Shown: piece after piece, positions 39,419 to 53,400 of the stretch | Layout: each line of letters opens with the position of its first letter | How positions within the stretch are numbered: position 1 is the stretch's first letter | Source: Gemmatimonadales bacterium | GTDB lineage: Bacteria; Gemmatimonadota; Gemmatimonadetes; Gemmatimonadales; GWC2-71-9 | Assembly: GCA_041613315.1 (NCBI GenBank) | Contig: JBFJHJ010000009.1 | Coordinates: 11,607 to 75,606, forward strand | Reading direction: 5' to 3' | Length of the DNA stretch: 64,000 nucleotides | The notes under the pieces: generated by a model | The model's database searches: none | Seen by the model: the letters and a program-made list of their open reading frames with translations, nothing else | What the model was told of the DNA's origin: nothing | Position numbers and translations under genes: made by a program

Positions 39419-40318
39419 ATGCTCGACGTCGTGCTGGCACACTTCTGGGTCAGGTCGACGGCGCGACTCGCGCTCGCGGTGTCGCTCGTCGTGACTCCCG
39501 GTGCGGGCGGTGCACAGCAGCCGCCGGCGCCCACCTCGGTGGGCGACCACGCGACGGTGCTGGGCGTGAATGTCGCCCTCGGCGGCGTCACGGCAGGCGT
39601 CTTTCAGCTCTTGCGGGGTGGCTCCTTCGGGAAGGGGTTCCTCGGCGGCAGCCTGGGCGGGGCGGTGGTGTACGCCGGCAAGCGGGTCGCGGGCCAGCAG
39701 TTCGACGGCGCCGGGCTCGTGGGTCGAGAGTTGGCGGCGGTCGGCAATTCGCTGGTCTACAACGCGGCCGAGGGAGGGCCGCTGCTCGAGCGCTTTATCG
39801 TGCCCCTGGGACCCATCCCGGTTCGCCTGCACCTCACCACGACCGGTGGGTTCGGTGTCCGGCCTACGGTGGACCTGGCCTCGGCGGGAGCGATAGTGTA
39901 CGGCCTCGTGGCGCCCGACGTTCGATTGGACATGGGTAGGAGCGTGTCCTCGGGCGCCGCGGTCTTCGTCCGGCCGGCCCGGCTACGGCCGCCGGGGACG
40001 GTGGTGGGAGGGCTTCCGCCGTCCGAGCGCATCGCGACGACAGTGGGGAGTGTCATCTTCCTCACGATCACCGCCGATGGCGACGCGCGCGTGCTCGCCC
40101 ACGAGCAGGTTCACGTGCTCCAGTTCGACTTCGTGCTGGCGGCGTGGAGCGACCGCCTGGATGCCGCCATGTGGGACGGCGTCGCGGTCTTCGACCGGTA
40201 CCTCAGACTCAACACGCTGGCGACCGTGTTGGGCGTGGCCAGCCGGACGCTGTTCCTCCCGCAGGACCGAGACGGACTGCCGTGGGAGGTCGAGGCACGT
40301 CGCTTGGCCGGCCGATAG
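39419..40318 (+). CDS. Hypothetical exported/membrane protein
   Basis: Signal-like N-terminus ending AGA-Q, Gly-rich helices, AHEQVH (HExxH) and PWEVEAR motifs. Confidence 0.6.
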   Translation: MLDVVLAHFWVRSTARLALAVSLVVTPGAGGAQQPPAPTSVGDHATVLGVNVALGGVTAGVFQLLRGGSFGKGFLGGSLGGAVVYAGKRVAGQQFDGAGLVGRELAAVGNSLVYNAAEGGPLLERFIVPLGPIPVRLHLTTTGGFGVRPTVDLASAGAIVYGLVAPDVRLDMGRSVSSGAAVFVRPARLRPPGTVVGGLPPSERIATTVGSVIFLTITADGDARVLAHEQVHVLQFDFVLAAWSDRLDAAMWDGVAVFDRYLRLNTLATVLGVASRTLFLPQDRDGLPWEVEARRLAGR

Positions 40319-40335
40319 GCGGCGCCACGCTCCCG

Positions 40336-41289
40336 ATGGATTTTCGTGAGGTCGTGCCCGAAGCGGAGCGCCGCATTCGGCCGCACGTGCGGGAGACGCC
40401 CCTCGTCCGATCCCCGCCTTTCAACGACGCCACTCGGGCCCGGGTCGCCTTCAAGCTCGAGAACCTCCAGCACACGGGGTCGTTCAAGCTCCGAGGCGCC
40501 GTCCACAAGCTGCTGACGCTCTCGGCCGACCAACGCGCGCGCGGTGTCGTCGCCGCCTCCACCGGAAATCACGGCGCGGCGATCGCGTACGCTGCGTCCC
40601 GCCTGCACACGCCGTGCCGCGTGTTCGTACCCGAGCAGGCGTCGCCCTCCAAGCTCGATGCGATCCGCCGCTCCGGGGCGGTGGTGGAGGTCTACGGTAT
40701 CGACAGCGGTGCGACCGAGACGCACGCGCGCGCCGTGGCCGGGGAGCAAGGGCTGGCGTACGTCTCGCCGTACAACGATCCAGCCGTGGTGGTGGGGCAG
40801 GGGACGATTGGGCTGGAGCTCGCCCGGCAGGCCGACCGAATCGATGTCCTGTACGTCGCGCTGGGTGGTGGCGGGCTCGTCTCGGGCATCGCCGGGTACC
40901 TCCGGACGCTCTGGCCGGGCGTGCGTGTGGTGGCGTGCTCGCCCGAAGCCTCGCCGGTCATGGTCGCGTCGGTTCGGGCCGGGCGGATCCTCGAGATGGC
41001 GTCCCAGCCGACGCTGTCCGATGGCACCGCGGGGGGCATCGAGCCGGATGCGATCACCTTCGATCTCTGCCGGCGCCTGGTGGACGAGTACGTCCTGGTC
41101 TCGGAGACGGAGATCGCGGAGGCGATGCGGCGCTATATGGACGCGCACGACGACGTCATCGAGGGCGCCGCCGGCGTCGCGGTCGCCGGCCTGCTCAAGA
41201 CGGCGGACGCCTGTCGTGGGCGGCACGTGGTCGTGGTGATCTGCGGCGGCAACATCGGTCGCGACGTGCTACAGCGCGTGCGCGGATGA
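40336..41289 (+). CDS. PLP-dependent threonine/serine dehydratase family protein (no ACT domain)
   Basis: KLENLQHTGSFKLRGA, ASTGNHG, GQGTIG, GGGGL, ICGGN. Confidence 0.92.
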   Translation: MDFREVVPEAERRIRPHVRETPLVRSPPFNDATRARVAFKLENLQHTGSFKLRGAVHKLLTLSADQRARGVVAASTGNHGAAIAYAASRLHTPCRVFVPEQASPSKLDAIRRSGAVVEVYGIDSGATETHARAVAGEQGLAYVSPYNDPAVVVGQGTIGLELARQADRIDVLYVALGGGGLVSGIAGYLRTLWPGVRVVACSPEASPVMVASVRAGRILEMASQPTLSDGTAGGIEPDAITFDLCRRLVDEYVLVSETEIAEAMRRYMDAHDDVIEGAAGVAVAGLLKTADACRGRHVVVVICGGNIGRDVLQRVRG

Positions 41290-41298
41290 GCCGCCGCC

Positions 41299-42234
41299 CT
41301 ACGGGCCGTTGTGACGCCCCGGGTCGCCTTCGAGCAGTTCCAGCAGGTCTTTGGCGAAGAGCGACGTGAACTCGATCGCCATCTCGAAATGGTCTTCGAG
41401 GACGTCCAGAAACGGTTCGAGGTCGATGCGGAGCCCGACCACCGGTCCGTCGGCGACGGCGTCATACCACCGGAGTGCGGTGGCCAGCGTTTCGTGCATC
41501 CCGAGCGTCGTCGTCGGGCCGCCGCCAAAGGGGCGCGCCAGCTCGCCCGCCGAACACGAGACCGCGCCGCCCGCGATCAGCAAGAACCACGTGGCGGGCT
41601 CGTCGCGACGCCAGGCGGCCTCGCCCGCGGCGTAGCGCAGCTCCACGACGTGCCGCGCCAACTCCGACAGCGCGTCCACGCTGCTCGAGGGGAACGCCGG
41701 CGCGCCGCGCAGCGCCAGAAGGCGCTCCACCAGGTTGAGCCGACGCTGGCCGGGCGGTAGCGTGCGCCCTTCCGCCGGTCCCAACCGCTGAGCCGTCGGC
41801 CGCCGCCTGAACTCCCCGAGCAGTCGTTCGGCGAGATAGCGCACGTACTGGAGCAGGATGGGGAAGTGCTGCTCGCAAATGTCGAGCTGCGCCTCCCAAT
41901 CCAGCCGGAGCGCCAAGGTATCCGCGTCCGCCCGGGCCTCGATCCCGCGGGCCGCCTGGGCGAGCAGGTGGTGGAATCCCACGGCGTCTCCCGGTCCCGC
42001 CTCTTGCGCGCTCCGGCCGAGTCGCGTGACCGTGACCCGCCCATCGATCACGAGATAGAAGGCCTCCGCAGGCCATTCGGGTCGCAGCAGGTAGTTGCCG
42101 CGCGGGAAGAACTGTTCCTGCGCGTGCTGGGCGATCGTGCCGAGCTGGGTCGGTGTCAGCCGATCGAGCGCCGGCATCGTCCGGAAATGGAGGATCCGGT
42201 CGAGGGGCCCCACAAAGACGGTGCGTTCAGGCAT
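41299..42234 (-). CDS. Protein with two cyclic-nucleotide-binding (cNMP) domains
   Basis: Two repeats of the ER.L.L...P.F..L...L..IA......F.G...... FYLVIDG.V....GPG..VG pattern; overlaps the upstream NTT-HEAT gene. Confidence 0.78.
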   Translation of the reverse strand: MPERTVFVGPLDRILHFRTMPALDRLTPTQLGTIAQHAQEQFFPRGNYLLRPEWPAEAFYLVIDGRVTVTRLGRSAQEAGPGDAVGFHHLLAQAARGIEARADADTLALRLDWEAQLDICEQHFPILLQYVRYLAERLLGEFRRRPTAQRLGPAEGRTLPPGQRRLNLVERLLALRGAPAFPSSSVDALSELARHVVELRYAAGEAAWRRDEPATWFLLIAGGAVSCSAGELARPFGGGPTTTLGMHETLATALRWYDAVADGPVVGLRIDLEPFLDVLEDHFEMAIEFTSLFAKDLLELLEGDPGRHNGP

Positions 42235-45010
42235 CGAGCGCGCTCCCGAGAGGCGGGCCGCCGAGCGCGGTGGAGGCGAAGGCTAAGATCTCGGCGTGAT
42301 CGTCGGAGAGCGCCAATCGACGGCGGAGGAGGGGCTCCATCCCATCCAACCCCAGCTCGGCAACGTGATATGCGGCCAGACTGCTGAGGGACTCGGTCGT
42401 GCTCCCGACGAGTTCCGCCAGCACCGTCTCGTACGCGTCGAGCTCGACGTCCTCGCCGCCCCGGAGCGCCGCGCCGCGTGGCTCGTAGAGATCGTCAATC
42501 AGCGTCAAGAGCGGTTCCCGCACGGGCGCGAACACCAGGTGTTCGAGTAGCTCGCGGCTGCTCGCCCGCGATTCGCGGCGTGGGCTGTTGAGCCCGCGAT
42601 AAATGTGGAGGAAGTCCTCGTTGTCTGCCTCCAGATTGAGGAGGCGGAAGAGGCGCTCCAGGGCATGGTTTTGTTTGTCGCGCAGCAGGAGGATCAGCAA
42701 CTCGTACACGGCGGTGCGCCGTCCCGGGTGCGTCGTGGCACCGTGCTCCATCGCGTGGCGCCAGCGCATGAATCGGAACGCGACGGCCAGCGTCTGCTTG
42801 CTCGCCTGGGCCAGGAGTCCGGTATCGAGGGGCAAGGCGGGCTGCTCCTGTCGGAGACGGCCAAGGGACCGGAGGATCTTGAAGCGAATCATGCCGTCGG
42901 GCTCGTGGAGCAAGTGTTTCACGAGGAGATCGGCCGCGGCCACGGTCGCAAACGTGGCGATCGCGCGGGGCAGGTGCCGGCGGATGCCGTGCGAGAGGTT
43001 GTGATCCTTGAGCCCCGTGCCGAGCCGAGCGAGCGCGGTCGGCCCCAGCGCCGCTAACGTGGTGCGCGCCTCGTCGCGCAGGACGCGTTCCGCCAGCATG
43101 GTGACCAGGACCGGGATGAACGTGGGGCTCCGCACCTCGCGCATCGCGCGCACGGCCTCCAGCCGCACGTCGACTTCGCCACGGGCCGCGAGGGCACGGA
43201 GCGCGCCTTCGAAGACGGCCGCCGGCTGATGGCGCACGGCTTGGGCCAGCGCGAGGCGGGCCTCGGCGGAGCCCTCGCTGACGATGCGTTGCAGGGCGGC
43301 CTCCGCCTGCGCGCGGCCCAGCCAGCCGCCGGCGATGAGCCCTACCAGGGCCGTCGCCCGGACCTCCGCGGCGCGGTCGCGCAGGCCGCCGCGCAAGCGG
43401 CCTTCGTCGGGCGCGAGCACGGACTGGAGTCGCAGACTGCCGGCGCGTATCTGCGGGTTGGGATGGTTCAGGAGCCGATCTACGATCGGCAGGACGTCGA
43501 GCCGTCCCGAGCGGATGAACAGCTCGAGCGCGTGTACGACGACCGGCGGCGAGGGGTGGTACAGAATGAGCGCCGGGATCACTCGCACTTTCCCCTGTGC
43601 GGTCAGCATGTCCAACGCTGCCATCACCTGACGGTCGTGGGGGGCGTTGAGCGTGCTGAGCAGGGTCTCGAGTGACGCGATGTCCAGCGCCGGGAACTCG
43701 ATCCGGGTCTCGGTGATCTCCTCACTCAGCGTCTCGCGGAAGACGTCGAGATAGTGCGTCCGCAGATCGAGGGCGAAGAACAGCCATACCGCCGCGGTGA
43801 GCGAGGCCATCCCGGCAAACACGACCTCCCGGGTGGTGGCCGCGAGGGTGATCAAGATGAGCAACGACGCCAACGCCTGGCCGCCGCGCTGGCCGAGAAC
43901 GTCGATGAACGCCTTCACGCGCGCGCGGAGCTCCGGCGCCATGGGCACGAAGAGCAGCTCGGTGCCCGTGCGGTGGAGCGAGTGCCGCAGGCTGCCGTCC
44001 ACGCCTTTGAGGAGGAGCACCACCGCGAGGGTGCCCGCGATCACGAAGCCCACCGCGCCGAGGAGCAAGAGTGCCGGCGCGAATGCCACGGCGATGTTCA
44101 CGCCGAGGCGGCGGATCAACCACGCGACGATGAAGACCTGCACCCCCAGGGACAGCACGTTCAGCGTCAGATACACGCTCGCGAAGAATTCGCCCAGCTC
44201 GCCCGGCGCCACCAGCCGCGCCACGGTCATCTTGAACACGAAGTCCACGAGCGTGAACGTCACCGTCGCCAGGAGGACGAGGATCGCCACGCGGCGCAGG
44301 TACGGCCGAGACCAGACGATCTGTCCCACACGGGTCACGTCCCATCTCACCGCGGTGGTCGCACCGGGTTCGGCGGACGGGCCGCCGCTCAAGAGCCGCG
44401 GGCCCCACGACGCCACGAGGAACACGGCGGCGGCGGCGAGCACCACGTACTGCGCCGCAACCAGGCCGGTGAGGAGCCGCGCGATCGCGGAGCCGACGAT
44501 CGCCCCCATCACGCTCCCCGACCCGATCACCGCAAAGACCCGCTTGGCTTGCGTCAGCGTGAAGAGACTGCCCAGGACGGTCCAAAAGCGCACCACCACC
44601 AGCGTCGCGAGCACGCCCGACCAGGTGTAGAGCGCATAGAACACCCAGTCGCCCGCCCAGCCCACGAGCAGCCAGAAGCCGAACGTGATCACCGCCGACA
44701 CGATGAGCCAGGCGCTGAGCTCGTGGCGATGCGCGAAGCGCCGCAGGATACGTGGTTGCCGCTCGGTGAGCGCGAGCGCCACGACGGCGATGGCGAGATA
44801 GACCCAGGGGAGTTGCGACGCCGGGAGCCTCGCGAGAAAGAGTGCGTCGCGGGCCGTCTCGAGCAGGGCGTGCCCGGCCATGAACCCGAACAGCGTGAGA
44901 AACGCCCCGAGGGCGTCTCGCCGCTCATCAGGGCGGATCCGGGCGACCGACCCCAAGATCCGTGCCGAGAGCATGTTGACGACGACCGAGTTTCTTGCCC
45001 TGGCGGTCAC
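42227..45010 (-). CDS. NTT/TLC (Npt1/Npt2-like ATP/ADP translocase family) membrane domain fused to HEAT repeats
   Basis: About 12 TM helices with LETARDALFL, FWTV..LFT..QAKRVF..IG.G, LRHSLHRTGTELLFVP...RARVKAFIDV..QRGG; then HEAT repeats (HP.P.VR..AL); SD AGGA before the GTG. Confidence 0.8.
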   Translation of the reverse strand: MTARARNSVVVNMLSARILGSVARIRPDERRDALGAFLTLFGFMAGHALLETARDALFLARLPASQLPWVYLAIAVVALALTERQPRILRRFAHRHELSAWLIVSAVITFGFWLLVGWAGDWVFYALYTWSGVLATLVVVRFWTVLGSLFTLTQAKRVFAVIGSGSVMGAIVGSAIARLLTGLVAAQYVVLAAAAVFLVASWGPRLLSGGPSAEPGATTAVRWDVTRVGQIVWSRPYLRRVAILVLLATVTFTLVDFVFKMTVARLVAPGELGEFFASVYLTLNVLSLGVQVFIVAWLIRRLGVNIAVAFAPALLLLGAVGFVIAGTLAVVLLLKGVDGSLRHSLHRTGTELLFVPMAPELRARVKAFIDVLGQRGGQALASLLILITLAATTREVVFAGMASLTAAVWLFFALDLRTHYLDVFRETLSEEITETRIEFPALDIASLETLLSTLNAPHDRQVMAALDMLTAQGKVRVIPALILYHPSPPVVVHALELFIRSGRLDVLPIVDRLLNHPNPQIRAGSLRLQSVLAPDEGRLRGGLRDRAAEVRATALVGLIAGGWLGRAQAEAALQRIVSEGSAEARLALAQAVRHQPAAVFEGALRALAARGEVDVRLEAVRAMREVRSPTFIPVLVTMLAERVLRDEARTTLAALGPTALARLGTGLKDHNLSHGIRRHLPRAIATFATVAAADLLVKHLLHEPDGMIRFKILRSLGRLRQEQPALPLDTGLLAQASKQTLAVAFRFMRWRHAMEHGATTHPGRRTAVYELLILLLRDKQNHALERLFRLLNLEADNEDFLHIYRGLNSPRRESRASSRELLEHLVFAPVREPLLTLIDDLYEPRGAALRGGEDVELDAYETVLAELVGSTTESLSSLAAYHVAELGLDGMEPLLRRRLALSDDHAEILAFASTALGGPPLGSALDA

Positions 45011-45241
45011 GGGTTTCCTAACACGTTGGCGGACTTCACGTTATACTTCGTGGCGATCGTCTGATCGCGCTGGTCGCCCGGGCGGGCGCCAGGAGACACG
45101 TTCTTGCACTCTGACAAGATGCCGACCGGGCGGCGCGAAACTGTGATCTTTGCCGATACCTGGAAGTCCAGATTCCTTGTATGTTATCGCCAGAGGCCGT
45201 CCCGGTTTCAGGGGGGGCCCCTTTTTCGTTACGGACGACCA

Positions 45242-48175
45242 ATGCCACGTTTGCTCACGACTGCCTGGGTGGTACTCCTGCTGGCGGCCCCTGCCATCCG
45301 CGCCGCGGCCCAGAGCTTCCCCCCGCCGCTCACCGACGCCGAGATCCGAGAGGTCACGAGCGCCATCGAGGCGATGAAGGCCGACGCCCGGGGGCCCTAC
45401 CTCCGGATCCGGTGGTTCTGCAATGACGGGAGCGTCGAGCCCCCCCAGGGCACCCCCTGCCGCGAGCGGGGTGGTGGCGTGCAGTACGCCGAGTTCAACG
45501 AGCGGGCCCGGCGTCTGGCCGAGCTCAATTTCCACGTGGGGACGATTCTCCAGGCCGTCACGTTCGAGGACCTCTTCGACTCGGCGCAGGCCCACTATCG
45601 CCTGCGCGAGCTCATAGTCGCGAAGTACCTGTTCGACGTGGACGACGGCTGGGCGCTCCGCCAGGCACAATTCTATCGCGGCGCCCGGCAGATCGAAGAC
45701 GAAGAGCGGACGGGGCACGCGCTGCTGGAAGGGCTGCTCGGGCGGCCCGAGTGGACCGCCGCGCACTATCTGTTGGCCGTCCGGCTCGTGGCCACGATCC
45801 CGCACGTGACACTGGGCGGTGACCAGCTCACGTACCGTATTCGGAATCTGGCGACGGAAGCCGCCGAGCTCGACCAGAGCTTCCTGCCAGTGCGGGTCAA
45901 GATCCACTCGTTCCCCTCGCGCGAGGACCTCGAGGCGGTCGAGCGGCATCTCGCCTCCGTGACGGCGCCGGCGGTGCGCGCGAAGCTCACCGAGTTGCGC
46001 GACGAGCTCCGCCGGCAGTACGACCCGCGGCGCAATCTCGAGAGCCTGGCCCAGTACCGGCGGCGGCTGCGGGGTACGCTGGGAGACGAACTGGCGGCGC
46101 TCGAGCGGAGCTTCGCGCAGGGGGACCAGCGGGGTGCGTTCGCGCAGATCGCCGGGCTGGCGCCGAAGATCCGCCAGCTCGTGACCACGGGCCGCGACGG
46201 CCGCGTCAACCTCGTGCTGATGGATCTGGGCCTTGCGCTGCAGGAGCAAGCGTTCCTGCTCGCGCAGGACCTCGTGCGCGAGCCGGGGCCGACGAGTCGC
46301 AGCGAACGCCTGCGGCGGCTCTCGGACTACCTCGCCATCGCCCACGGCGCCGGGTTCCTGTCGGCCCGCGAACGTGACGCGCTGGACCGCGAAATCGCGC
46401 GGCTGCGGACGGAGGTGCCGCCAACGGCCCTCGAGTACAAGACCGCGCTCGGCTACCTCGGCCGGAGTCTCGACTGGTCGGCGGGGACGGTTCGGAGCTA
46501 CTTCGGGCCGGTGATCCAGCGCTACCTGCCGGTGGCGCCCAAGGTCGTGGGATTCCCCGACGCCGTCATGCGCGGCTCGGTGCTGCTGCCCCTCTCCCAG
46601 GCGCTCGACGTCCTGGATACCGACGCCGATCGCGTGCTGGGTGCTTCCCACGAGATCTTCGGGCAGCGGGTCAGCCAGGGGGTCCGTGGACTCAACCCTG
46701 GAGTCGTCCGCCGCCCGCTGGAGATCCTGGAGCCCGAGCGTGCGCACGCGGCGGTCGAGCCCACGAAAATCTACGTGGTGCCGGCAACGACGCCCGAGCT
46801 CAAACCCGTGGCCGGCGTGCTGACGCTCGATGCCGGCAACCTCCTGTCCCACGTGCAGCTGCTCGCCCGCAACCTCGGCATCCCAAATGCGTCCGTGTCG
46901 TCGTCGCTGCTGCCGGTCCTGCGCTCGGCCCGCGGCACCGAGGTGTTCTACGCCGTCTCGCCACTCGGCCGCGTTTTCCTCAAGCGGCCGGGGGAGATGA
47001 CGCCGGAGGACGAAGGGTTGCTCGACGGCGGGCGCGACGTCAAGATCGAGAAGATCCGTCTCGACACCTCGCGGCTCCGGCTTGATCGGACGGCGCCGCT
47101 CCCGCTGTCGGAGCTTCGGGCGGACCTGTCCGGCGTGTACGTCGGGCCGAAGGCGGCGAATCTCGGGCAGCTCGCGGCGTACTTCCCGAGCCGCGTCTCG
47201 CGTGGCGTCGCGCTGCCCTTCGGGATGTTCGTCCGCCACGCGAACCGCCCCTTCGGGTCGGACCGGCCGATGCTCGAGGATTTGGAAGCGGCGTACCGCC
47301 ACGCGGCGGCGATGCGGGCGGCCGGGATGTCCGAGGAGGAGATCGATCGGTACATGTTCCGGGAGCTGGCCCGCGTGCGGAAGGCGATCCTCGACCTGCC
47401 CTGGCTGCCCGACGTCCGTGACGCGGTCGTCGATGCGGTACGCGTGACGTTCGGTGGCGATCTCTCGGGCGGTGTGTTTGTGCGCAGCGACACCAATGTC
47501 GAGGACCTGCCGCAGTTTTCCGGCGCGGGGCTCAACCTCACCGTCCCCCACCAACGAACGCTCGAAGACGTGCTGGCGTCCATCAAGCGCGTGTGGACCT
47601 CGCCGTTCAGCGAGCGGGCGTATCTGTGGCGCAAGCAGATTCTGGAGGAACAGGGGCGGATCTACCCGTCGGTGCTCCTGCTCGAGAGCGTCCCGTCGGA
47701 GAAGTCGGGCGTGATGATCACGTCGGGCCTCCAGTTCGGCGATTCGGACGATCTGACGATCGCCACCGCCGAAGGCGTGGGTGGCGCGGTGGAAGGCGAG
47801 GAGGCCGAGATGATCGTCGTCGACTCGGCGGGCACGGTGACGCTGCTGTCCCAGGCCAAGGCGCCGGTGCGGCGGGTGCTCGTGGACCGTGGGGTGGCGA
47901 CGGTGGTGGGGCGGCTGCCGGACGTCCTGCTGCGCCAGGCGGACATCGCCACGCTGCGGGCGGTGGCGGCCGAATGGCAGGCGCGCTTCGCCCCGGGCGA
48001 TGCGTCGCAAGTGTGGGACATCGAATTCGGGTTCGTCGGGGACACGCTATGGCTATTCCAGATTCGACCGTTCGTGCGGTTCCGGAGCAGCGCCCTCCTG
48101 ACGCGGTTGCAGGTGCTGGATCGCGACGTCCTGGAGCGAGCGGACCGACGGGTCGCGCTGGTGGAGCGGATCTGA
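45242..48175 (+). CDS. Exported PEP/pyruvate-binding (PPDK_N ATP-grasp) dikinase-like protein with phospho-His domain
   Basis: Signal peptide MPRLLTTAWVVLLLAAPAIRAAA-Q; His-swivel GNLLSHVQLLARNLGIPN; C-terminal GPKAANL, GVALPFG.F, VRSDTNVEDLPQFSGAGLN, VWTSPFSERA, SGV, DIEF, QIRP. Confidence 0.85.
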   Translation: MPRLLTTAWVVLLLAAPAIRAAAQSFPPPLTDAEIREVTSAIEAMKADARGPYLRIRWFCNDGSVEPPQGTPCRERGGGVQYAEFNERARRLAELNFHVGTILQAVTFEDLFDSAQAHYRLRELIVAKYLFDVDDGWALRQAQFYRGARQIEDEERTGHALLEGLLGRPEWTAAHYLLAVRLVATIPHVTLGGDQLTYRIRNLATEAAELDQSFLPVRVKIHSFPSREDLEAVERHLASVTAPAVRAKLTELRDELRRQYDPRRNLESLAQYRRRLRGTLGDELAALERSFAQGDQRGAFAQIAGLAPKIRQLVTTGRDGRVNLVLMDLGLALQEQAFLLAQDLVREPGPTSRSERLRRLSDYLAIAHGAGFLSARERDALDREIARLRTEVPPTALEYKTALGYLGRSLDWSAGTVRSYFGPVIQRYLPVAPKVVGFPDAVMRGSVLLPLSQALDVLDTDADRVLGASHEIFGQRVSQGVRGLNPGVVRRPLEILEPERAHAAVEPTKIYVVPATTPELKPVAGVLTLDAGNLLSHVQLLARNLGIPNASVSSSLLPVLRSARGTEVFYAVSPLGRVFLKRPGEMTPEDEGLLDGGRDVKIEKIRLDTSRLRLDRTAPLPLSELRADLSGVYVGPKAANLGQLAAYFPSRVSRGVALPFGMFVRHANRPFGSDRPMLEDLEAAYRHAAAMRAAGMSEEEIDRYMFRELARVRKAILDLPWLPDVRDAVVDAVRVTFGGDLSGGVFVRSDTNVEDLPQFSGAGLNLTVPHQRTLEDVLASIKRVWTSPFSERAYLWRKQILEEQGRIYPSVLLLESVPSEKSGVMITSGLQFGDSDDLTIATAEGVGGAVEGEEAEMIVVDSAGTVTLLSQAKAPVRRVLVDRGVATVVGRLPDVLLRQADIATLRAVAAEWQARFAPGDASQVWDIEFGFVGDTLWLFQIRPFVRFRSSALLTRLQVLDRDVLERADRRVALVERI

Positions 48176-49467
48176 TGATGGCCTCCCGCGGGACGCGCTG
48201 GCTCGCGTGTGCGCTGCTCGGGCTCGTGGCCGTGGGCGCCGCCCCGTCGGGGCCGTATCCGTTGGACGGGTACGAGCACACCGGCATCCGCCGGCTCGAA
48301 GCGTTCCGTCTCATGCGGGCCGGACAGATCCGGGGATCGCTGCGGCTCCCCCCCGGAGCGTTGCTGCCCTCGGAGGCGATCCGGCTGCGCATGGCGGGCT
48401 TCGATGAGACCTTCGATATTCTGCCGGACACGCCCAAGGACCCGGAGCTCCAGGCGGCGCTGCTCAGCATCGTGGCCGCGCGGGATACCTCCTACCGGGT
48501 GGCCCTGCTCGACATCACCGACCCGGCACAGCCGCGGTACGCCGCGGTCCGGGAGAGCGAGGGCTACATCCCCGGCAGCGTCGGGAAGCTCTTGGTGATG
48601 ACTGGATTGTTCCACGAGTTGGCCAAGCGTTTCCCCTCGGACATCGCCGCACGGGCGCGGTTGCTCCGCGACACGCGGATCGTGGCGGACCGGTGGGTGC
48701 TGCCCAACAGCCATCAGATCCCGGTCGTGAACGAGGACATGACCGCGGTGACCTACCGCGCCGTGCGCGTTGGGGACGAGTTCACCCTGTGGGAATGGGT
48801 CGACCACATGATCTCGCCCAGCTCCAACGCCGCCGGTTCGCTGGTGTGGAAACAGGTCATGTTGATGGACGCGTTCGGTACCGCCTATCCACCGTCGGCG
48901 GCGGCGGAGGAGGCGTTTTTCCGCGATACGCGGAAGCCGGAGCTGACCGCCCGGTCCCTTCGGGTCCTGGAGGATCCGCTCCTCGCGCTCGGACTCGACA
49001 CGGCGCAGCTCCGTCTAGGCACGTTCTTCACGCGCACGGCGTCCCGCATCGTTCCCGGCCAGGCGAGCTCGTCGACGCCCCGCGAGCTGGTCCGCTGGCT
49101 CTTGAAGCTGGAGCAGGGGAAGGTCGTGGACCGGTGGAGCAGTCTCGAGATGAAGAGGCTCATGTACTTCACGCGGCGCCGGTACCGCTACGCCTCATCG
49201 CCTGCCCTGGCGGACGCCGCCGTATACTTCAAGTCGGGCTCCCTGTACCAATGCCGCCCGGAGCCCGATTATCAATGCGGGCAATACCGGGGCAACGCTA
49301 CGAACCTCATGCACTCGGTGGCGATCGTCGAGTCACCGGCGTCCGGCGACCGCCAGCGCGTGTATCTGATCTCGATGATGTCGAACGTGCTCAAGGTGAA
49401 CTCCGCGGCAGAGCACCTGGAGATCGCGACGCAGATCGAACAGCTGCTCCAGCGGCTGCACCCGTGA
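48175..49467 (+). CDS. Exported serine hydrolase, beta-lactamase class A/PBP-like
   Basis: Signal peptide; SVGK (SxxK), SSN (SxN), KSG; TGATG overlap with the dikinase stop. Confidence 0.82.
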   Translation: MMASRGTRWLACALLGLVAVGAAPSGPYPLDGYEHTGIRRLEAFRLMRAGQIRGSLRLPPGALLPSEAIRLRMAGFDETFDILPDTPKDPELQAALLSIVAARDTSYRVALLDITDPAQPRYAAVRESEGYIPGSVGKLLVMTGLFHELAKRFPSDIAARARLLRDTRIVADRWVLPNSHQIPVVNEDMTAVTYRAVRVGDEFTLWEWVDHMISPSSNAAGSLVWKQVMLMDAFGTAYPPSAAAEEAFFRDTRKPELTARSLRVLEDPLLALGLDTAQLRLGTFFTRTASRIVPGQASSSTPRELVRWLLKLEQGKVVDRWSSLEMKRLMYFTRRRYRYASSPALADAAVYFKSGSLYQCRPEPDYQCGQYRGNATNLMHSVAIVESPASGDRQRVYLISMMSNVLKVNSAAEHLEIATQIEQLLQRLHP

Positions 49468-49510
49468 GTGGGCCGGGGCGATCCGTAACCGCGACCGTCA
49501 GGACCACGGT

Positions 49511-50488
49511 ATGAGAGGAGTAGACCGCCATATGATGCGATCGGTCGGTGGGCTGCTGATACTATCGGCGTGCGCCGGCGGCTTGATCGGGCTCCCGCCG
49601 GCCGGGCAGGTGGCCGCGCAGAGCGCGGCGAGCCCAACCCTCGTGCTCCCCGCGGCGGACCCGGTGTTGCAGGCGGAGCTCAACCGGGTGCTCGCCGAGC
49701 CGCCGTTCCGGAGCCTCATGGCCCGGAAGCGCCTGTCCGTGGCGCTCGTGGACCTGTCGGATTCGGGCGGGATCCGCTACGCGGCGGTGGACGACAACCG
49801 CATGCGCTACGCCGCGAGCCTGCCGAAGATCGCCATCATGCTGGGCGTCTTCGACCAGATCGACCGGGGAAAACTCGAGTACACGCCGGAGCTGCGGGCC
49901 AAGATGGAGCTGATGATCCGGCGGTCGGACAACTACGTGTCTACGCAGCTCATTCAGCTGGTCGGGTTCCAGGCCATCGCGAACACGCTCCGGGACCCGC
50001 GCTATCAGCTGTACGACCGGAGCCGCTCCGGCGGTCTGTGGGTTGGCCGCGACTACGGGGGCGGTCCCGGCCTGTGGCGCCGGGATCCGATCCACAAGAT
50101 CTCGCACGGCGCCACGGCCCGGCAGGTCGCGCGCTACTTCGTGATGCTCGATCAGGGGCGGCTGGTCAGTCCGTGGGCGTCGAGCGAGATGAAGAGCATC
50201 ATGGCCCACCCCGAGATTCATCATAAGTTCGTGCTCGGGCTCGACAGCCGGCCCCCGTCGAACATCTTCCGCAAGTCGGGGACGTGGAAGAGCTGGCACG
50301 CCGACGCCGCCCTGGTGGAACGGGACGGCAAGCGCTACGTGGCCGTGGCGCTACTGGAAGCACCGGGCTCCGGGGGGGTGCTGTCGCGCCTCATCGTGAG
50401 GCTCGATGACCTGATCCATGGGCCCTCGCCGGTGCCGATGGCACCGGCGAACGTGCCGACCGAGGAGCAGCAACCGCCGGCACAGTGA
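49511..50488 (+). CDS. Exported serine hydrolase, beta-lactamase class A/PBP-like; start may be ATG 49532/49535
   Basis: Signal-like N-terminus; ASLPK (SxxK), SDN, KSGT. Confidence 0.85.
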   Translation: MRGVDRHMMRSVGGLLILSACAGGLIGLPPAGQVAAQSAASPTLVLPAADPVLQAELNRVLAEPPFRSLMARKRLSVALVDLSDSGGIRYAAVDDNRMRYAASLPKIAIMLGVFDQIDRGKLEYTPELRAKMELMIRRSDNYVSTQLIQLVGFQAIANTLRDPRYQLYDRSRSGGLWVGRDYGGGPGLWRRDPIHKISHGATARQVARYFVMLDQGRLVSPWASSEMKSIMAHPEIHHKFVLGLDSRPPSNIFRKSGTWKSWHADAALVERDGKRYVAVALLEAPGSGGVLSRLIVRLDDLIHGPSPVPMAPANVPTEEQQPPAQ

Positions 50489-51171
50489 CCGAGCGGCGCG
50501 CGCTCCTCGCCGGCGCCACCGGGCTCGTGGGCGGCTACGGCCTCGACGAGCTCCTCGGCTCGAATCGCTACGCCACCATCACGGCCCTCACGAGACGCCC
50601 GCTCGAGCGACGCCATCACACATTGCGGGAAGTGACGGCCGACTTCGACCGTCTCGACACCCTCGGCGACCGGCTCGCGGCCGACGACGTGTTCTGCTGC
50701 CTCGGCACCACGATCCGACGGGCCGGATCGCCGGACGCCTTCCGCCGGGTCGATTTCGACTATCCGCTCGCGCTGGCCCGGGCCGCTCGCCTCCACGGCA
50801 CCGTCCAGTTCGTGATCGTGTCGTCGCTGGGCGCGGATCCCGACGCGCGCACCTTCTATCTGCGGGTGAAGGGCGAACTCGAGCGCGCCCTGAGCGAGGT
50901 CGGCATGCGCACGCTCGTCGTCGTCCGGCCCTCCCTTCTCCTGGGCTCGCGGCGCGAATCGCGCCCCGCCGAGGCCGTCGGCAAACTCGTGCTGTCGGCA
51001 GTCGCGCCCCTCTTGGTCGGGCGGCTGGCCCGGTATCGGCCGATCCACGCGCGGGATGTCGCGCGGGCGATGGTGCAGCTCGCGGCGCGTGGCCTCACCG
51101 GTCTTCACACGTTCGAGTCCGACGAGCTGCGCGCGCTCGCCCGGCACACGGGGGCGCCCCCGTCGGGCTAG
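50485..51171 (+). CDS. NAD(P)-binding oxidoreductase (YraR/TIP30-like)
   Basis: GATGLVG, FCCLGTT, VSSLGAD, FYLRVKGELE, RPSLLLG; GTGA overlap with the upstream gene. Confidence 0.88.
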   Translation: MTERRALLAGATGLVGGYGLDELLGSNRYATITALTRRPLERRHHTLREVTADFDRLDTLGDRLAADDVFCCLGTTIRRAGSPDAFRRVDFDYPLALARAARLHGTVQFVIVSSLGADPDARTFYLRVKGELERALSEVGMRTLVVVRPSLLLGSRRESRPAEAVGKLVLSAVAPLLVGRLARYRPIHARDVARAMVQLAARGLTGLHTFESDELRALARHTGAPPSG

Positions 51172-51190
51172 GGGCCAGCCCGCGCCCTTC

Positions 51191-51218
51191 AAACCCCCCG
51201 GGTCCCTGCGGCATCCTA
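51191..51218 (+). promoter_or_regulatory. Putative ECF-sigma promoter (autoregulatory)
   Basis: AAACC-N14-GGCATCCTA; the same motif and spacing recur at 53419-53446. Confidence 0.6.
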
Positions 51219-51290
51219 GTAGCGAGAGAATGGAGCGTCTGCGCATTCCGACCCATCGAGCGCCCGCCGGACCGGCCCGCCGCCCCTGAG

Positions 51291-51806
51291 ATGGAGCCGC
51301 TCGTGCGCCGGGCGCAGGTGGGCGATGCGCACGCCTTCGAGGAGCTGTACCGGCGCTCGGCGGGCCGCGTGTACGCGCTGTGCCTCCGGCTGACGGGCGA
51401 CGCGGTGCGCGCCGAAGAGCTGACGCAGGACGTGTTCGTGCGGTGCTGGGAGCGGCTGCGCTCGTTCCGGGGGGACAGCGCCTTCGCCTCCTGGCTGCAT
51501 CGGCTGGCCGTCAACGTGGTGTTGATGGCGGCGCGGTCCGAGCGGCGTCGGGAGCGTCGCGTGACGCCGGCGGGTGATCCCGCCGAGCTCGAGGGTTCTG
51601 GGCACGTGACCGATCCGGGGACGCGGCTCGATCTTGAGGCGGCGATCCGCCGGCTGCCGCCCGGGGCGCGCGAGGTGTTCGTGCTCCATGACGTGGAGGG
51701 GTACGGCCATGCGGAAATCGCCGACGTCGCGGGCATCGCGACCGGCACGTCAAAGGCCCAGCTGCATCGTGCGCGGCGCTTGTTGAGGGAGATGCTCCAG
51801 CGATGA
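51291..51806 (+). CDS. ECF RNA polymerase sigma factor
   Basis: AQVGD..AFEELY, AEELTQDVF, FRGDSAFASWLHRLAVN, VFVLHDVEGYGHAEIA, GTSKAQLHRAR. Confidence 0.93.
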   Translation: MEPLVRRAQVGDAHAFEELYRRSAGRVYALCLRLTGDAVRAEELTQDVFVRCWERLRSFRGDSAFASWLHRLAVNVVLMAARSERRRERRVTPAGDPAELEGSGHVTDPGTRLDLEAAIRRLPPGAREVFVLHDVEGYGHAEIADVAGIATGTSKAQLHRARRLLREMLQR

Positions 51807-52453
51807 GCCACGGCGAGATCCGTGAACGGCTCGACGACTACGTGGACGGGTGTCTGACTCCCGAGCGGCAGGCGGTCATCGAGGCGCATCTGGCCGACTG
51901 CGAAGACTGCCGTCGGGAAGTGGATTTCCTGCGGCCCCTTCTGGCGGAGGCACGGACGCTGCCGCCGAGCCTCGAGCCGCCGACGGATCTCTGGGGGTCC
52001 ATCCAGCAGCGGATCGGGAGGCGCCGCGTCCGCGACCACACCCTGTGGTCGGTTCGTTACCAGTTGGCGGCCGCCGCCATGGCGCTGCTCTTGCTCGGAT
52101 CCCTCCTCACGGTGCTGCTCCTGCGACCTGAACCGGTGAAGGTGATCGCCACGGCCCCCGCCGTGGCCGCCGTGCCGGGCTTCCCCGCCGGCTGGCGCGA
52201 GACCGAAGACAGTTACCGGCGCGCCGCGGCCGATCTGGAAGAAGCGCTGGCCGGGGCGAAGCCACGGCTCGCCCCGGCAACCGTGGCGGTGCTGGAGCGG
52301 AACCTCCGCATTATCGACGACGCCATTGCCGAGGCCCGCGCCGCGCTCGCGGCTGACCCGGCGAACCGGGAGGTGCTCGAGATGTTGGCCGACATGTATG
52401 CCAAGAAGGTGGATGTGCTCCAGCAGGTCACCAAGCTCTCGGCGGTGCTGTGA
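51803..52453 (+). CDS. Zinc-binding (zf-HC2, ZAS) membrane anti-sigma factor
   Basis: HLADCEDC (HxxxCxxC), single TM helix, ATGA overlap with the sigma gene. Confidence 0.9.
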   Translation: MSHGEIRERLDDYVDGCLTPERQAVIEAHLADCEDCRREVDFLRPLLAEARTLPPSLEPPTDLWGSIQQRIGRRRVRDHTLWSVRYQLAAAAMALLLLGSLLTVLLLRPEPVKVIATAPAVAAVPGFPAGWRETEDSYRRAAADLEEALAGAKPRLAPATVAVLERNLRIIDDAIAEARAALAADPANREVLEMLADMYAKKVDVLQQVTKLSAVL

Positions 52454-53400
52454 GCAACCCCGGGCGTCACTCAGCTTTCCACTGTCCGGTCGCGGCGACG
52501 CGCCGGCGTGGAGCCGGGCGCGGCCCAGGCGTTGACGTCGGTCTGCGGGTGGCGCATCACGGATTGCGCCTCGCGCTCCTCGTCACGCTCGCCCCGGCGG
52601 TCGTCGCCGCGCAACAGCCGATTGCCGAGGCGCGGTCGGCCGATCCCGGCGGGACGGTCAAGATCTCCGTACCGTCGGGGACGGTCCGCGTCACGGGATG
52701 GGACCGGGACTCGGTCGAGCTCGGCGGCACGATCGGCGGCGGCCAACGGCTCGAGTTTGGCATCCAAGGCCGCGAGACCCGGATCCGCATCGTCCCGGTG
52801 CCCGACGCCCGCGAGGGCGGAGCCAGCGCCTTGCGGGTGCGCGTGCCCCGCGGCAGTCACGTGGCGATCCGCACGTCCAGCGCTGACGTCAACGTGGACG
52901 ACCTGCAAGGCGCGGTGGACGTCGCGTCGGTGAGCGGGAGCATCCGGGTGTCCGGGAACGCCCGCACGATCTATGCGGAGTCCGCCGCCGGCAGCGTGGA
53001 CATCGAGGCGTACACGAAGGTGGTCCGGGCGAAATCGGTGGACGGAGCGGTCACCGTGCGCCGTGCGGCCGGCTTTGTTGAGGTCTCCACGGTGAGCGGG
53101 ACGGCCACGGTGATGGGTCGCAACCTCTGGGAAGGACAGGTGACCACGGTGTCCGGCGACATCCGGTTTGAGGGCGGGTTCGACAGCCCGGGGTCTTTCC
53201 GGTTCGAGACCCATAGCGGTGCGATCGCGCTCGTCTTGCCGTCGTCGGTCCGGGCCGACGTGGATATCGTCGCCTTCGGCGGCCGCGTGGAAAGCGACTT
53301 CGGGCCGGCCGGCGCGCGCGCGTTCTCCACGGGCCCGGACGGCACGCGGCTCACCATCAAGAGCTTCAAAGGCGACATCCGGATCCGCCGCCAGCGGTAG
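52450..53400 (+). CDS. DUF4097-family (adhesin-like beta-repeat) exported protein
   Basis: Repeated S[VA]SG.[IV].[VI] strands, e.g. SVSGSIRV, TVSGDIRF, SFKGDIRI. Confidence 0.82.
   Translation: MSNPGRHSAFHCPVAATRRRGAGRGPGVDVGLRVAHHGLRLALLVTLAPAVVAAQQPIAEARSADPGGTVKISVPSGTVRVTGWDRDSVELGGTIGGGQRLEFGIQGRETRIRIVPVPDAREGGASALRVRVPRGSHVAIRTSSADVNVDDLQGAVDVASVSGSIRVSGNARTIYAESAAGSVDIEAYTKVVRAKSVDGAVTVRRAAGFVEVSTVSGTATVMGRNLWEGQVTTVSGDIRFEGGFDSPGSFRFETHSGAIALVLPSSVRADVDIVAFGGRVESDFGPAGARAFSTGPDGTRLTIKSFKGDIRIRRQR

Follow-up and report, generated by a model that had tools for sequence, protein, structure and literature searches.

We analysed a window of 64,000 nucleotides (about 70% G+C) from contig JBFJHJ010000009.1 of a marine Gemmatimonadales bacterium, the genome assembly of which (GCA_041613315.1) amounts to 2.63 Mb and is 83% complete. 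Our subject is a group of six genes at positions 41299–51171 of this window, in which genes for a nucleotide transporter of the NTT/TLC type and a cyclic nucleotide (cNMP)-binding-fold protein diverge from genes for a dikinase with a predicted export leader, two proteins of the PBP-A / class A beta-lactamase fold (here BL1 and BL2) and an oxidoreductase-like protein. The initial annotation had proposed that these six form a system in which the transporter could export ATP, or recycle nucleotide, for the exported dikinase. All six open reading frames (ORFs) it listed were found, each with the Pfam domain that had been named for it, and the divergent spacer reads as 231 bp. The features are as follows.

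41299–42234, minus strand: cNMP-binding-fold protein, 311 aa, two such domains, predicted cytoplasmic (PF00027, 2 stretches, E 5.2e-15)
42227–45010, minus strand: NTT-HEAT transporter, 927 aa (TLC PF03219 and HEAT_2)
43676–45010, minus strand: NTT/TLC-type nucleotide-carrier domain of the transporter, residues 1–445 (Pfam TLC, 37.7 bits, cut-off 21)
42227–43675, minus strand: C-terminal HEAT-repeat tail of the transporter, ~480 aa (HEAT_2, E 3.3e-9)
45011–45241, no strand: divergent intergenic region between the transporter and dikinase units, 231 bp (read from the sequence)
45242–48175, plus strand: dikinase, 977 aa (PPDK_N, E 2.4e-23)
45242–45316, plus strand: predicted leader peptide of the dikinase (MPR, hydrophobic core, Ala-rich end; from the sequence)
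45317–46756, plus strand: N-domain of the dikinase, residues 26–505, mostly helical, presumed acceptor-binding (AlphaFold2 (AF2) model)
46778–46885, plus strand: core of the dikinase phosphohistidine (PEP-utilizers mobile) domain, with the H537 codon at 46850–46852 (PF00391, below cut-off)
47141–48079, plus strand: C-terminal PPDK_N ATP-grasp (nucleotide-binding) domain of the dikinase (PF01326)
48175–49467, plus strand: BL1, predicted exported protein of the PBP-A / class A beta-lactamase fold, 430 aa (PF13354, 32.4 bits)
49511–50488, plus strand: BL2, predicted exported PBP-A-like protein, possibly a lipoprotein, 325 aa (PF13354, 67.8 bits, E 1.1e-18)
50485–51171, plus strand: NAD(P)-binding short-chain oxidoreductase-like protein, 228 aa (Epimerase, E 4.5e-11; NAD_binding_10)

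The reported gene overlaps are likewise present. The dikinase TGA (48173–48175) and the BL1 ATG (48175–48177) meet in a TGATG overlap, through which BL1 is apparently translationally coupled to the dikinase; the oxidoreductase GTG (50485–50487) and the BL2 TGA (50486–50488) form a GTGA overlap; and the cNMP protein (ATG 42234–42232) overlaps the NTT-HEAT gene (stop 42229–42227) by 8 nt. Residue numbers given below for BL1 are the protein's own plus one, its true start being the ATG at 48175. A search of positions 40000–53000 against Rfam gave nothing at E <= 0.1.

A conserved module of four gene families

With each species represented by a single genome, a pattern scan gave at least 599 matching stretches, at least 587 of which encode a relative of the dikinase, and the best 80 loci were analysed. 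The records, whose taxon labels we use throughout, assign these loci to Gemmatimonadota, Acidobacteriota, Desulfobacterota-type 'delta' bacteria, Bacteroidota, Gamma- and Zetaproteobacteria, one Alphaproteobacteria, Calditrichia, KSB1, Ignavibacteriales, Latescibacterota and one Acidimicrobiia, and all 80 carry labels of diderm phyla except the single Acidimicrobiia contig. The genes of this contig (L028), labelled with a monoderm class, are closest to Bryobacterales versions, making it either a mis-binned contig or a real exception.

Clustering of every ORF from the 80 loci with a length of 90 aa or more showed three clusters to recur widely: one of the dikinase, in 80 loci, one that combines BL1 with BL2, in 74, and one of the long NTT, in 39. 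Those next in frequency (29 to 7 loci) are, judging by listed examples, antisense or out-of-frame reading frames within the core genes, and no further recurring gene family, including any alternative transporter where the NTT is lacking, was found in more than 6 loci. The conserved unit is four families, namely a dikinase of ~980 aa, BL1, BL2 and an NTT/TLC transporter, and is smaller than the six-gene system first proposed: the oxidoreductase is found in 0 of the 80 loci and is a local passenger, while a homologue of the cNMP protein is found in four, all close relatives.

In 76 of 80 loci tblastn places BL1 immediately after the dikinase and in the same orientation. In 37 loci the sequence extends for 7 kb or more in both directions (long-flank loci); of these, 36 have BL1, 30 have BL2 and 22 have an NTT by tblastn. 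The suggested proximity of dikinase and NTT survived this check, an NTT lying within 10 kb in 41 of the 80 loci and in 22 of the 37 with long flanks; one further NTT, in L056, was found only by blastp of ORFs and stands beyond the 41. Presence of the NTT follows lineage: it is nearby in the long-flank loci of Bacteroidota (11/11), Desulfobacterota (5/5), Gammaproteobacteria (4/5), Ignavibacteriales (1/1) and KSB1 (1/1), and in none of those of Acidobacteriota (0/10), Calditrichia (0/2), Latescibacterota (0/1) or the Acidimicrobiia label (0/1). Three gene orders occur. The NTT is divergent and upstream in the window and its relatives; in Bacteroidota, KSB1 and Ignavibacteriales, dikinase and BL1 are followed by NTT-HEAT and BL2 on the other strand; and in Desulfobacterota, Zeta- and Gammaproteobacteria, dikinase and BL1 are followed by BL2 on the other strand and a short NTT. 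All four genes are present in Arenibacter palladensis, Formosa undariae, Flagellimonas chongwuensis and Labilibaculum manganireducens.

Profile searches of 301 genomes of the window's phylum found the dikinase N-domain in 6 genomes, BL1 in the same 6, each time beside the dikinase, and BL2 strongly in the same 6 with one additional weak, unrelated match. An adjacent NTT in 5 of these 6 genomes bears out the claimed linkage within the phylum; leaving aside the window's genome, 4 of the remaining 5 (G013, G176, G182 and G279 in our numbering) have their best NTT match in an adjacent, divergent position, as in the window. Of 40 closer relatives, G013 alone has both a dikinase orthologue (63% identity) and an NTT-HEAT orthologue (61%), the two being neighbours. 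Genera are split with respect to the dikinase (present in one of two genomes in g18 and one of four in g14), and the module is therefore patchy and probably mobile.

Beyond the four genes, the neighbours at seven annotated loci from four phylum-level groups are unrelated housekeeping or regulatory genes, and neither ORF clustering nor these seven loci revealed resistance or mobile-element genes conserved around the module. Downstream of the oxidoreductase in the window (51250–53400) lie a putative extracytoplasmic function (ECF) sigma factor (sequence within ORF 50418–51806) and two further genes, for a zf-HC2 anti-sigma-like protein (51803–52453) and a DUF4097 protein (52450–53400). Such a trio is of the envelope-stress type; it is not kept in the other module loci. 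No published description of the module was found in the literature searched, judged mainly by titles and abstracts.

The dikinase and its PBP-A-like partners

The dikinase, whose family comprises complete proteins of ~960–1000 aa, consists of a leader, an N-domain of ~480 residues, a phosphohistidine domain and a C-terminal ATP-grasp domain (Pfam). PPDK_N (PF01326) matches residues 634–946 with 83.4 bits against a cut-off of 27 (E 2.4e-23), and PEP-utilizers (PF00391) matches residues 513–548 weakly (18.6 bits, E 1.4e-3, below the 23.1 cut-off). Its closest homologues are labelled Gemmatimonadota and Acidobacteriota. The best solved relatives are phosphoenolpyruvate (PEP) synthases, matched in the ATP-grasp part only (8a8e, E 2.7e-12), while a second, weak alignment stretch places LSH537 of the dikinase on TSH of 8a8e. 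In an alignment of 69 full-length members, drawn from the 80 loci and the window, the invariant residues (69/69) include S536 and H537 of the phosphohistidine domain, K637, R748, S749, D750, E754, D755, D926, E928, Q940 and R942 of the ATP-grasp domain, and W58, C60, D62, C73, R146, Q150, E152, R201, R218 and H222 of the N-domain. We take K637, R748, E754, D755, E928, Q940 and R942 to be the equivalents of PPDK ATP-site residues. Since the ATP-grasp and phosphohistidine residues are invariant throughout, the dikinase looks catalytically intact, and it has both the ATP-grasp domain and the T/S-S-H motif of a swivelling His-domain that mark the PPDK/PEP-synthase type.

Within this type it differs from each of the known enzymes with which it was compared. 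No PEP-utilizers_C TIM barrel (PF02896) was found in the Pfam search at E <= 0.01, no carbohydrate-binding Pfam module (CBM45/CBM20 or other) was detected, and NCBIfam PEP-synthase scores are far under their cut-offs (e.g. 79.3 vs 883). PEP synthase, PPDK and rifampin phosphotransferase (RPH) have a homologous ATP-grasp domain and phosphohistidine motif, but their domain order is the reverse, they are cytoplasmic, and neither the barrel and order of PPDK nor the equivalog-level similarity and order of RPH are found here. In alpha-glucan, water dikinase (GWD), an N-terminal substrate-binding part precedes a phosphohistidine domain and a C-terminal PPDK_N domain. The likeness to plant GWD/PWD is in domain order only: the starch-binding modules (CBM45/CBM20) are missing from our dikinase, which has instead a helical N-domain without known fold and a leader, whereas GWD acts inside plastids, where ATP is present. 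The AF2 model of the N-domain (pLDDT 90.2, pTM 0.88, 68-row alignment) is mostly helical. For this domain, Foldseek found nothing in the PDB at E <= 0.001 (best E 0.27), VIA wide gave at best Z 10.4 with 92-residue helical bundles, which is within that tool's chance range for helical matches, and the ESM Atlas returned only unnamed 'hypothetical' clusters (best score 0.89).

Both partner proteins have the three motifs of penicilloyl-serine transferases (SxxK, SxN and K(T/S)G) on a beta-lactamase fold. In BL1, S136/K139 (SxxK), S217/N219 (SxN) and K354-S355-G356 are invariant (40/40), as are C361 and C369 (40/40), and in BL2 S103/K106, S139/N141 and K255-S256-G257 are invariant (35/35). Searches of BL1 against the PDB by sequence, single or profile, gave nothing meaningful. 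Its AF2 model (pLDDT 93.5) is matched first by PBP-A (2jbf, 2j9o and 2j7v; Foldseek E about 4e-10, target-normalised TM-score 0.70–0.74) and then by class A beta-lactamases, the two groups together spanning TM-scores of 0.70–0.75 and identities of ~13–19%. The BL2 profile matches PBP-A Tll2115 of Thermosynechococcus (2j7v) at E 7.9e-6, its closest solved relative, and D192 of BL2 (Asp in 30 of 35 sequences) aligns, in a weak alignment (E 0.005), with L158E, the E166-equivalent position of PBP-A. Glu166, the general base in the omega loop, is what sets beta-lactamases apart from PBP-A. Tll2115 (2j7v, 2j9o), with its SxxK, SxN and KS/TG motifs, is the closest solved relative of BL1 as well; BL1 differs in its ~13% identity and in being ~130 residues longer (431 vs about 270 in the aligned chain), and both BL1 and BL2 differ from PBP-A in being strictly tied to a dikinase gene.

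The families vary in places. Two BL2 paralogues lie either side of the short NTT in Mariprofundus (L057 5029–8485, L061 4119–7566), and in three Desulfobacterota-type loci (L040 10849–12474, L063 260–1837, L084 3437–5020) BL1 has ~100 extra C-terminal residues (525–541 aa against the usual 415–440). A single Terriglobia locus without BL2 (L025 14504–15643, minus strand) has a protein with a SpoIID domain, of the peptidoglycan-cleaving type, right after BL1.

These resemblances bear on one alternative view of the module, as a periplasmic antibiotic-inactivation cluster in which the dikinase would act as a rifampin phosphotransferase and BL1 and BL2 would hydrolyse or bind beta-lactams, a role compatible with a supply of ATP by the NTT. 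The complete motifs of BL1 and BL2 on a class A beta-lactamase/PBP-A fold would suit such a cluster, as would the Asp of BL2 at the E166-equivalent position, weakly aligned as it is, and a patchy distribution that looks like horizontal transfer; PDB matches of the dikinase also include 5fbs and 5hv1, which are RPH entries labelled PEP synthase in the PDB. The NCBIfam matches that point the same way are weak: the rifamycin-inactivating phosphotransferase model scores 45.7 bits against a cut-off of 999 (NF041857), a second RPH model 34.5 against 1700 (NF000283), and PigC/RedH is also far under its cut-off. Moreover, neither the domain order nor the rifampin-binding domain of RPH is present, and neither the clustering nor the seven annotated loci showed conserved resistance or mobile-element genes around the module. 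We consider antibiotic inactivation quite unlikely.

In the window, the N-termini of the dikinase, BL1 and BL2 show hydrophobic leaders, and those of the oxidoreductase and the cNMP protein show none. The leader that had been claimed for the dikinase proved to be family-wide: by hydropathy, a hydrophobic stretch precedes the conserved RGPY motif in 64 of 65 full-length dikinases in which that motif could be located, and the same crude test was passed by 64 of 72 BL1 and 51 of 57 BL2 sequences. The dikinase leaders comprise a short, positively charged N-terminus, a short hydrophobic core and a small-residue end. The BL2 leader of the window (49511–49580) contains LSAC, a possible lipobox, and several Bacteroidota BL2 leaders likewise end in a motif containing Cys; BL2 may be a lipoprotein in some lineages.

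It could be argued that these leaders have been mis-read, the dikinase being cytoplasmic or anchored facing the cytoplasm and its proximity to the NTT reflecting shared regulation of nucleotide metabolism, since the calls were made by hydropathy and start codons are approximate in the high-GC loci. The same pattern is found, however, in low-GC Bacteroidota, where the start codons are clear, and the hydrophobic cores are short, with small-residue sites after them. In 150 listed representatives the N-domain starts between residue 1 (in N-terminally cut proteins) and residue 79, mostly at 14–60, and the fold of BL1 and BL2 is one that works outside the cytoplasm. Cys pairs invariant in the dikinase (69/69) and BL1 (40/40) would also fit an oxidising compartment. 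A cytoplasmic dikinase appears very improbable.

The nucleotide carrier

On the window's carrier TLC (PF03219) covers residues 230–420 only, and TIGR00769 scores 31, far under its superfamily cut-off of 387; the NTT domain matches plastid NTT1 (9j3j) at E 8.9e-6. A profile built from 30 module-linked NTTs matches solved bacterial and plastid ADP,ATP carriers over positions 7–430 and much more strongly (9j3n, E 6.8e-35; 9j3j, E 2.3e-30). The match covers the FW..AN...EAKR and K.K..IDV motifs and makes the linked carrier domain, along its full length, a member of the TLC family. For the NTT portion of the window's protein a crude hydropathy analysis gave 9 segments, and for relatives 8–10, where the MFS fold of NTT carriers has twelve transmembrane helices. 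The NTT-HEAT architecture described initially holds in the window but is not general, as the short-form NTTs of Desulfobacterota, Zeta- and Gammaproteobacteria (~430 aa) have no HEAT repeats; these give stronger TLC matches (E 1.6e-21 and 1.3e-19). In two gammaproteobacterial loci a second, longer NTT-like ORF (833 and 715 aa) directly follows the short linked NTT (L054 15318–19118, L087 15573–19005).

Fusions of NTT and HEAT repeats with an adjacent or fused cyclic nucleotide-binding domain (cNBD) were described by Major, Embley & Williams 2017 as widespread in free-living bacteria and uncharacterised (PMC5381601). As far as the accessible part of that account goes, the window's transporter and cNMP protein fit its NTT-HEAT(-cNBD) clade, with an NTT, a C-terminal HEAT region and a cNMP protein either a few nt downstream or fused. 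It differs from our loci in giving the cNBD as the sole neighbour in that part, whereas here a portion of the NTTs, some bearing HEAT repeats and some lacking them, is linked to an exported dikinase and a pair of PBP-A-like proteins. One module-linked NTT-HEAT (L012 6224–9430, minus strand; 1068 aa) has a cNMP-binding domain fused at its C-terminus, and groups in the tree with an unlinked paralogue of G113, apart from the window's carrier.

The tree was a quick maximum likelihood analysis of 47 NTT domains, unrooted, with SH-aLRT support only and with warnings for long branches and composition. In it the linked NTTs fall into at least three separate, well-supported groups, namely the long form of Gemmatimonadota/Acidobacteriota (support 100), the long form of Bacteroidota/KSB1/Ignavibacteriales (98) and the short form (100); the carriers of L012 and L042 fall outside all three, and unlinked paralogues lie between the groups. 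This rules out a single dedicated clade of linked NTTs. Given at least three linked lineages and three gene orders, we propose that NTTs have been recruited or replaced repeatedly, and this in turn points to a functional need for such a carrier, met by no single dedicated orthologue.

A possible supply of ATP to the periplasm

The periplasm is taken to be free of ATP, and envelope chemistry to be powered by imported activated precursors or by membrane-spanning machines. On balance, and with modest confidence, we favour the explanation that the locus represents an envelope module which is conserved and moves horizontally, and in which the NTT supplies ATP to the exported dikinase. The core of the module, as part of this best explanation, is the exported dikinase together with two exported PBP-A-like acyl-serine enzymes, to which an NTT-type carrier has been added in most phyla. 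What survives of the interpretation first put forward is the linkage of dikinase and NTT, the family-wide leader and the invariant catalytic residues; the oxidoreductase, the cNMP protein and the HEAT repeats, on which it also drew, are local or absent elsewhere. Export of ATP, gating by HEAT repeats and cNMP, and a glycan or small-molecule acceptor are matters that we infer.

The steps would be as follows. An NTT in the inner membrane would exchange cytoplasmic ATP for periplasmic adenine nucleotide, possibly with inorganic phosphate (Pi), a third NTT substrate that makes the exchange electroneutral (PMC2606016). The dikinase, presumably working in the periplasm, would by the chemistry of its family bind ATP in the C-terminal ATP-grasp domain and take the beta-phosphate onto His537; the phospho-His537 domain would then swing to the helical N-domain and pass the phosphate to an acceptor, with release of AMP and Pi. 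BL1 and BL2 may process that acceptor molecule too, by way of an acyl-enzyme formed on serine, and this shared substrate, judging by their fold, would most likely be a D-amino-acid peptide of the peptidoglycan type or a beta-lactam-like compound, an identity much less certain than the overall picture. In this lineage the HEAT tail and the cNMP-fold protein may regulate the carrier from the cytoplasmic side, as suggested by the fusion of a cNMP domain to the carrier in L012.

Several observations weigh against a supply of ATP by the NTT. No expression data were found, the sequencing runs listed being of marine-metagenome DNA with no RNA run, and the leader calls that place the dikinase in the periplasm were made by hydropathy. 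As the N-domain has no recognisable fold, the acceptor is not readable from it and is a guess. NTT-family matches (E <= 1e-40) occur in 149 of the 301 phylum genomes (including G087) against 6 with the dikinase, and of the 13 genomes that match the NTT best, 7 carry no dikinase; the NTT-HEAT paralogue regions of those genomes contain a cNMP match in 4 of 7 cases and dikinase or BL genes in none. The occurrence of NTT-HEAT and cNMP paralogues in such unrelated contexts implies that the carrier family has other roles. One dikinase genome of the phylum, G132, has the core without an adjacent NTT, and 15 of the 37 long-flank loci, including all 10 of Acidobacteriota, have no NTT nearby. The five genomes with an NTT-less dikinase locus that were examined all encode NTT homologues elsewhere (E 1e-83 to 1e-149), but with so high a background rate of NTTs this genome-level co-occurrence (5/5) is weak evidence. 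Finally, all characterised NTTs are importers (PMC5381601; preprint 10.64898/2026.03.31.715626), and the preprint gives the mitochondrial carrier as the only known ATP exporter.

The contexts of the unlinked carriers are themselves of some interest. In L103 (G055:C25, 2198–10921) and L105 (G059:C15, 168–7082) a short NTT, an NTT-HEAT and a single-domain cNMP protein occur together amid PAS histidine kinases and response regulators, a recurrent context of the carrier. In L107 (G140:C47, 9691–16266) an NTT-HEAT paralogue and a cNMP match are followed by a 581-aa protein without Pfam family and an Omp85-domain protein; the G140 genome has no dikinase.

The import activity of characterised NTTs and the 15 long-flank loci that do without a nearby NTT would be more readily explained if the genes were linked but their roles differed, the NTT working inward (recovering AMP or ADP, or importing nucleotide or a phosphorylated product) and the dikinase using ATP that has leaked or been released by lysis, or working backwards, with ATP made at the expense of a phospho-donor outside the cell, PPDK-type chemistry being reversible within the family. 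Free extracellular ATP is generally scarce, however, and no gene that would produce a phospho-donor is conserved in the loci. The repeated recruitment of different NTT lineages and the adjacency in 5 of 6 dikinase genomes of the phylum also suggest that the carrier is needed for the chemistry of the module itself. We regard such a division of roles as unlikely. A more specific version of ATP export, to which we attach little probability, is that free-living diderm bacteria power wall chemistry with ATP outside the cytoplasm, that the dikinase phosphorylates, and so activates, a carboxylate or hydroxyl of a peptidoglycan-type peptide, and that the PBP-A-like enzymes then make or remodel bonds with it; if so, cross-linking and repair would be freed from the bond energy of the D-Ala-D-Ala imported from the cytoplasm.

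Supply of ATP to an exported enzyme would have partial parallels elsewhere. Secretory-pathway kinases such as Fam20C are fed by an ATP/ADP exchanger of the endoplasmic reticulum and Golgi, and the likeness lies in an ATP-consuming enzyme outside the cytosol combined with an ATP carrier; the present enzyme differs in being a dikinase with a phosphohistidine intermediate rather than having a protein-kinase fold, and its partners are PBP-A-like proteins rather than phosphatases. An ATP-dependent enzyme of Gram-negative bacteria with a signal peptide and a periplasmic destination is already known in Lig E; it is unrelated to the dikinase, and the abstracts on it name no dedicated nucleotide carrier.

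The module recurs in at least ten phylum-level groups, with a dikinase that looks catalytically intact behind a leader and beside homologues of ATP/ADP carriers, and it suggests, without proof, that ATP is fed into the periplasm by these bacteria. The many NTTs of free-living bacteria that are uncharacterised are given a functional context here for the first time, as is a protein family of ~400–900 clusters annotated only as 'PEP/pyruvate-binding domain-containing' or hypothetical. Cultured, non-pathogenic flavobacteria have all four genes and make the proposal testable; if our inference is right, the module would be a tangible example of a periplasm provided with ATP.

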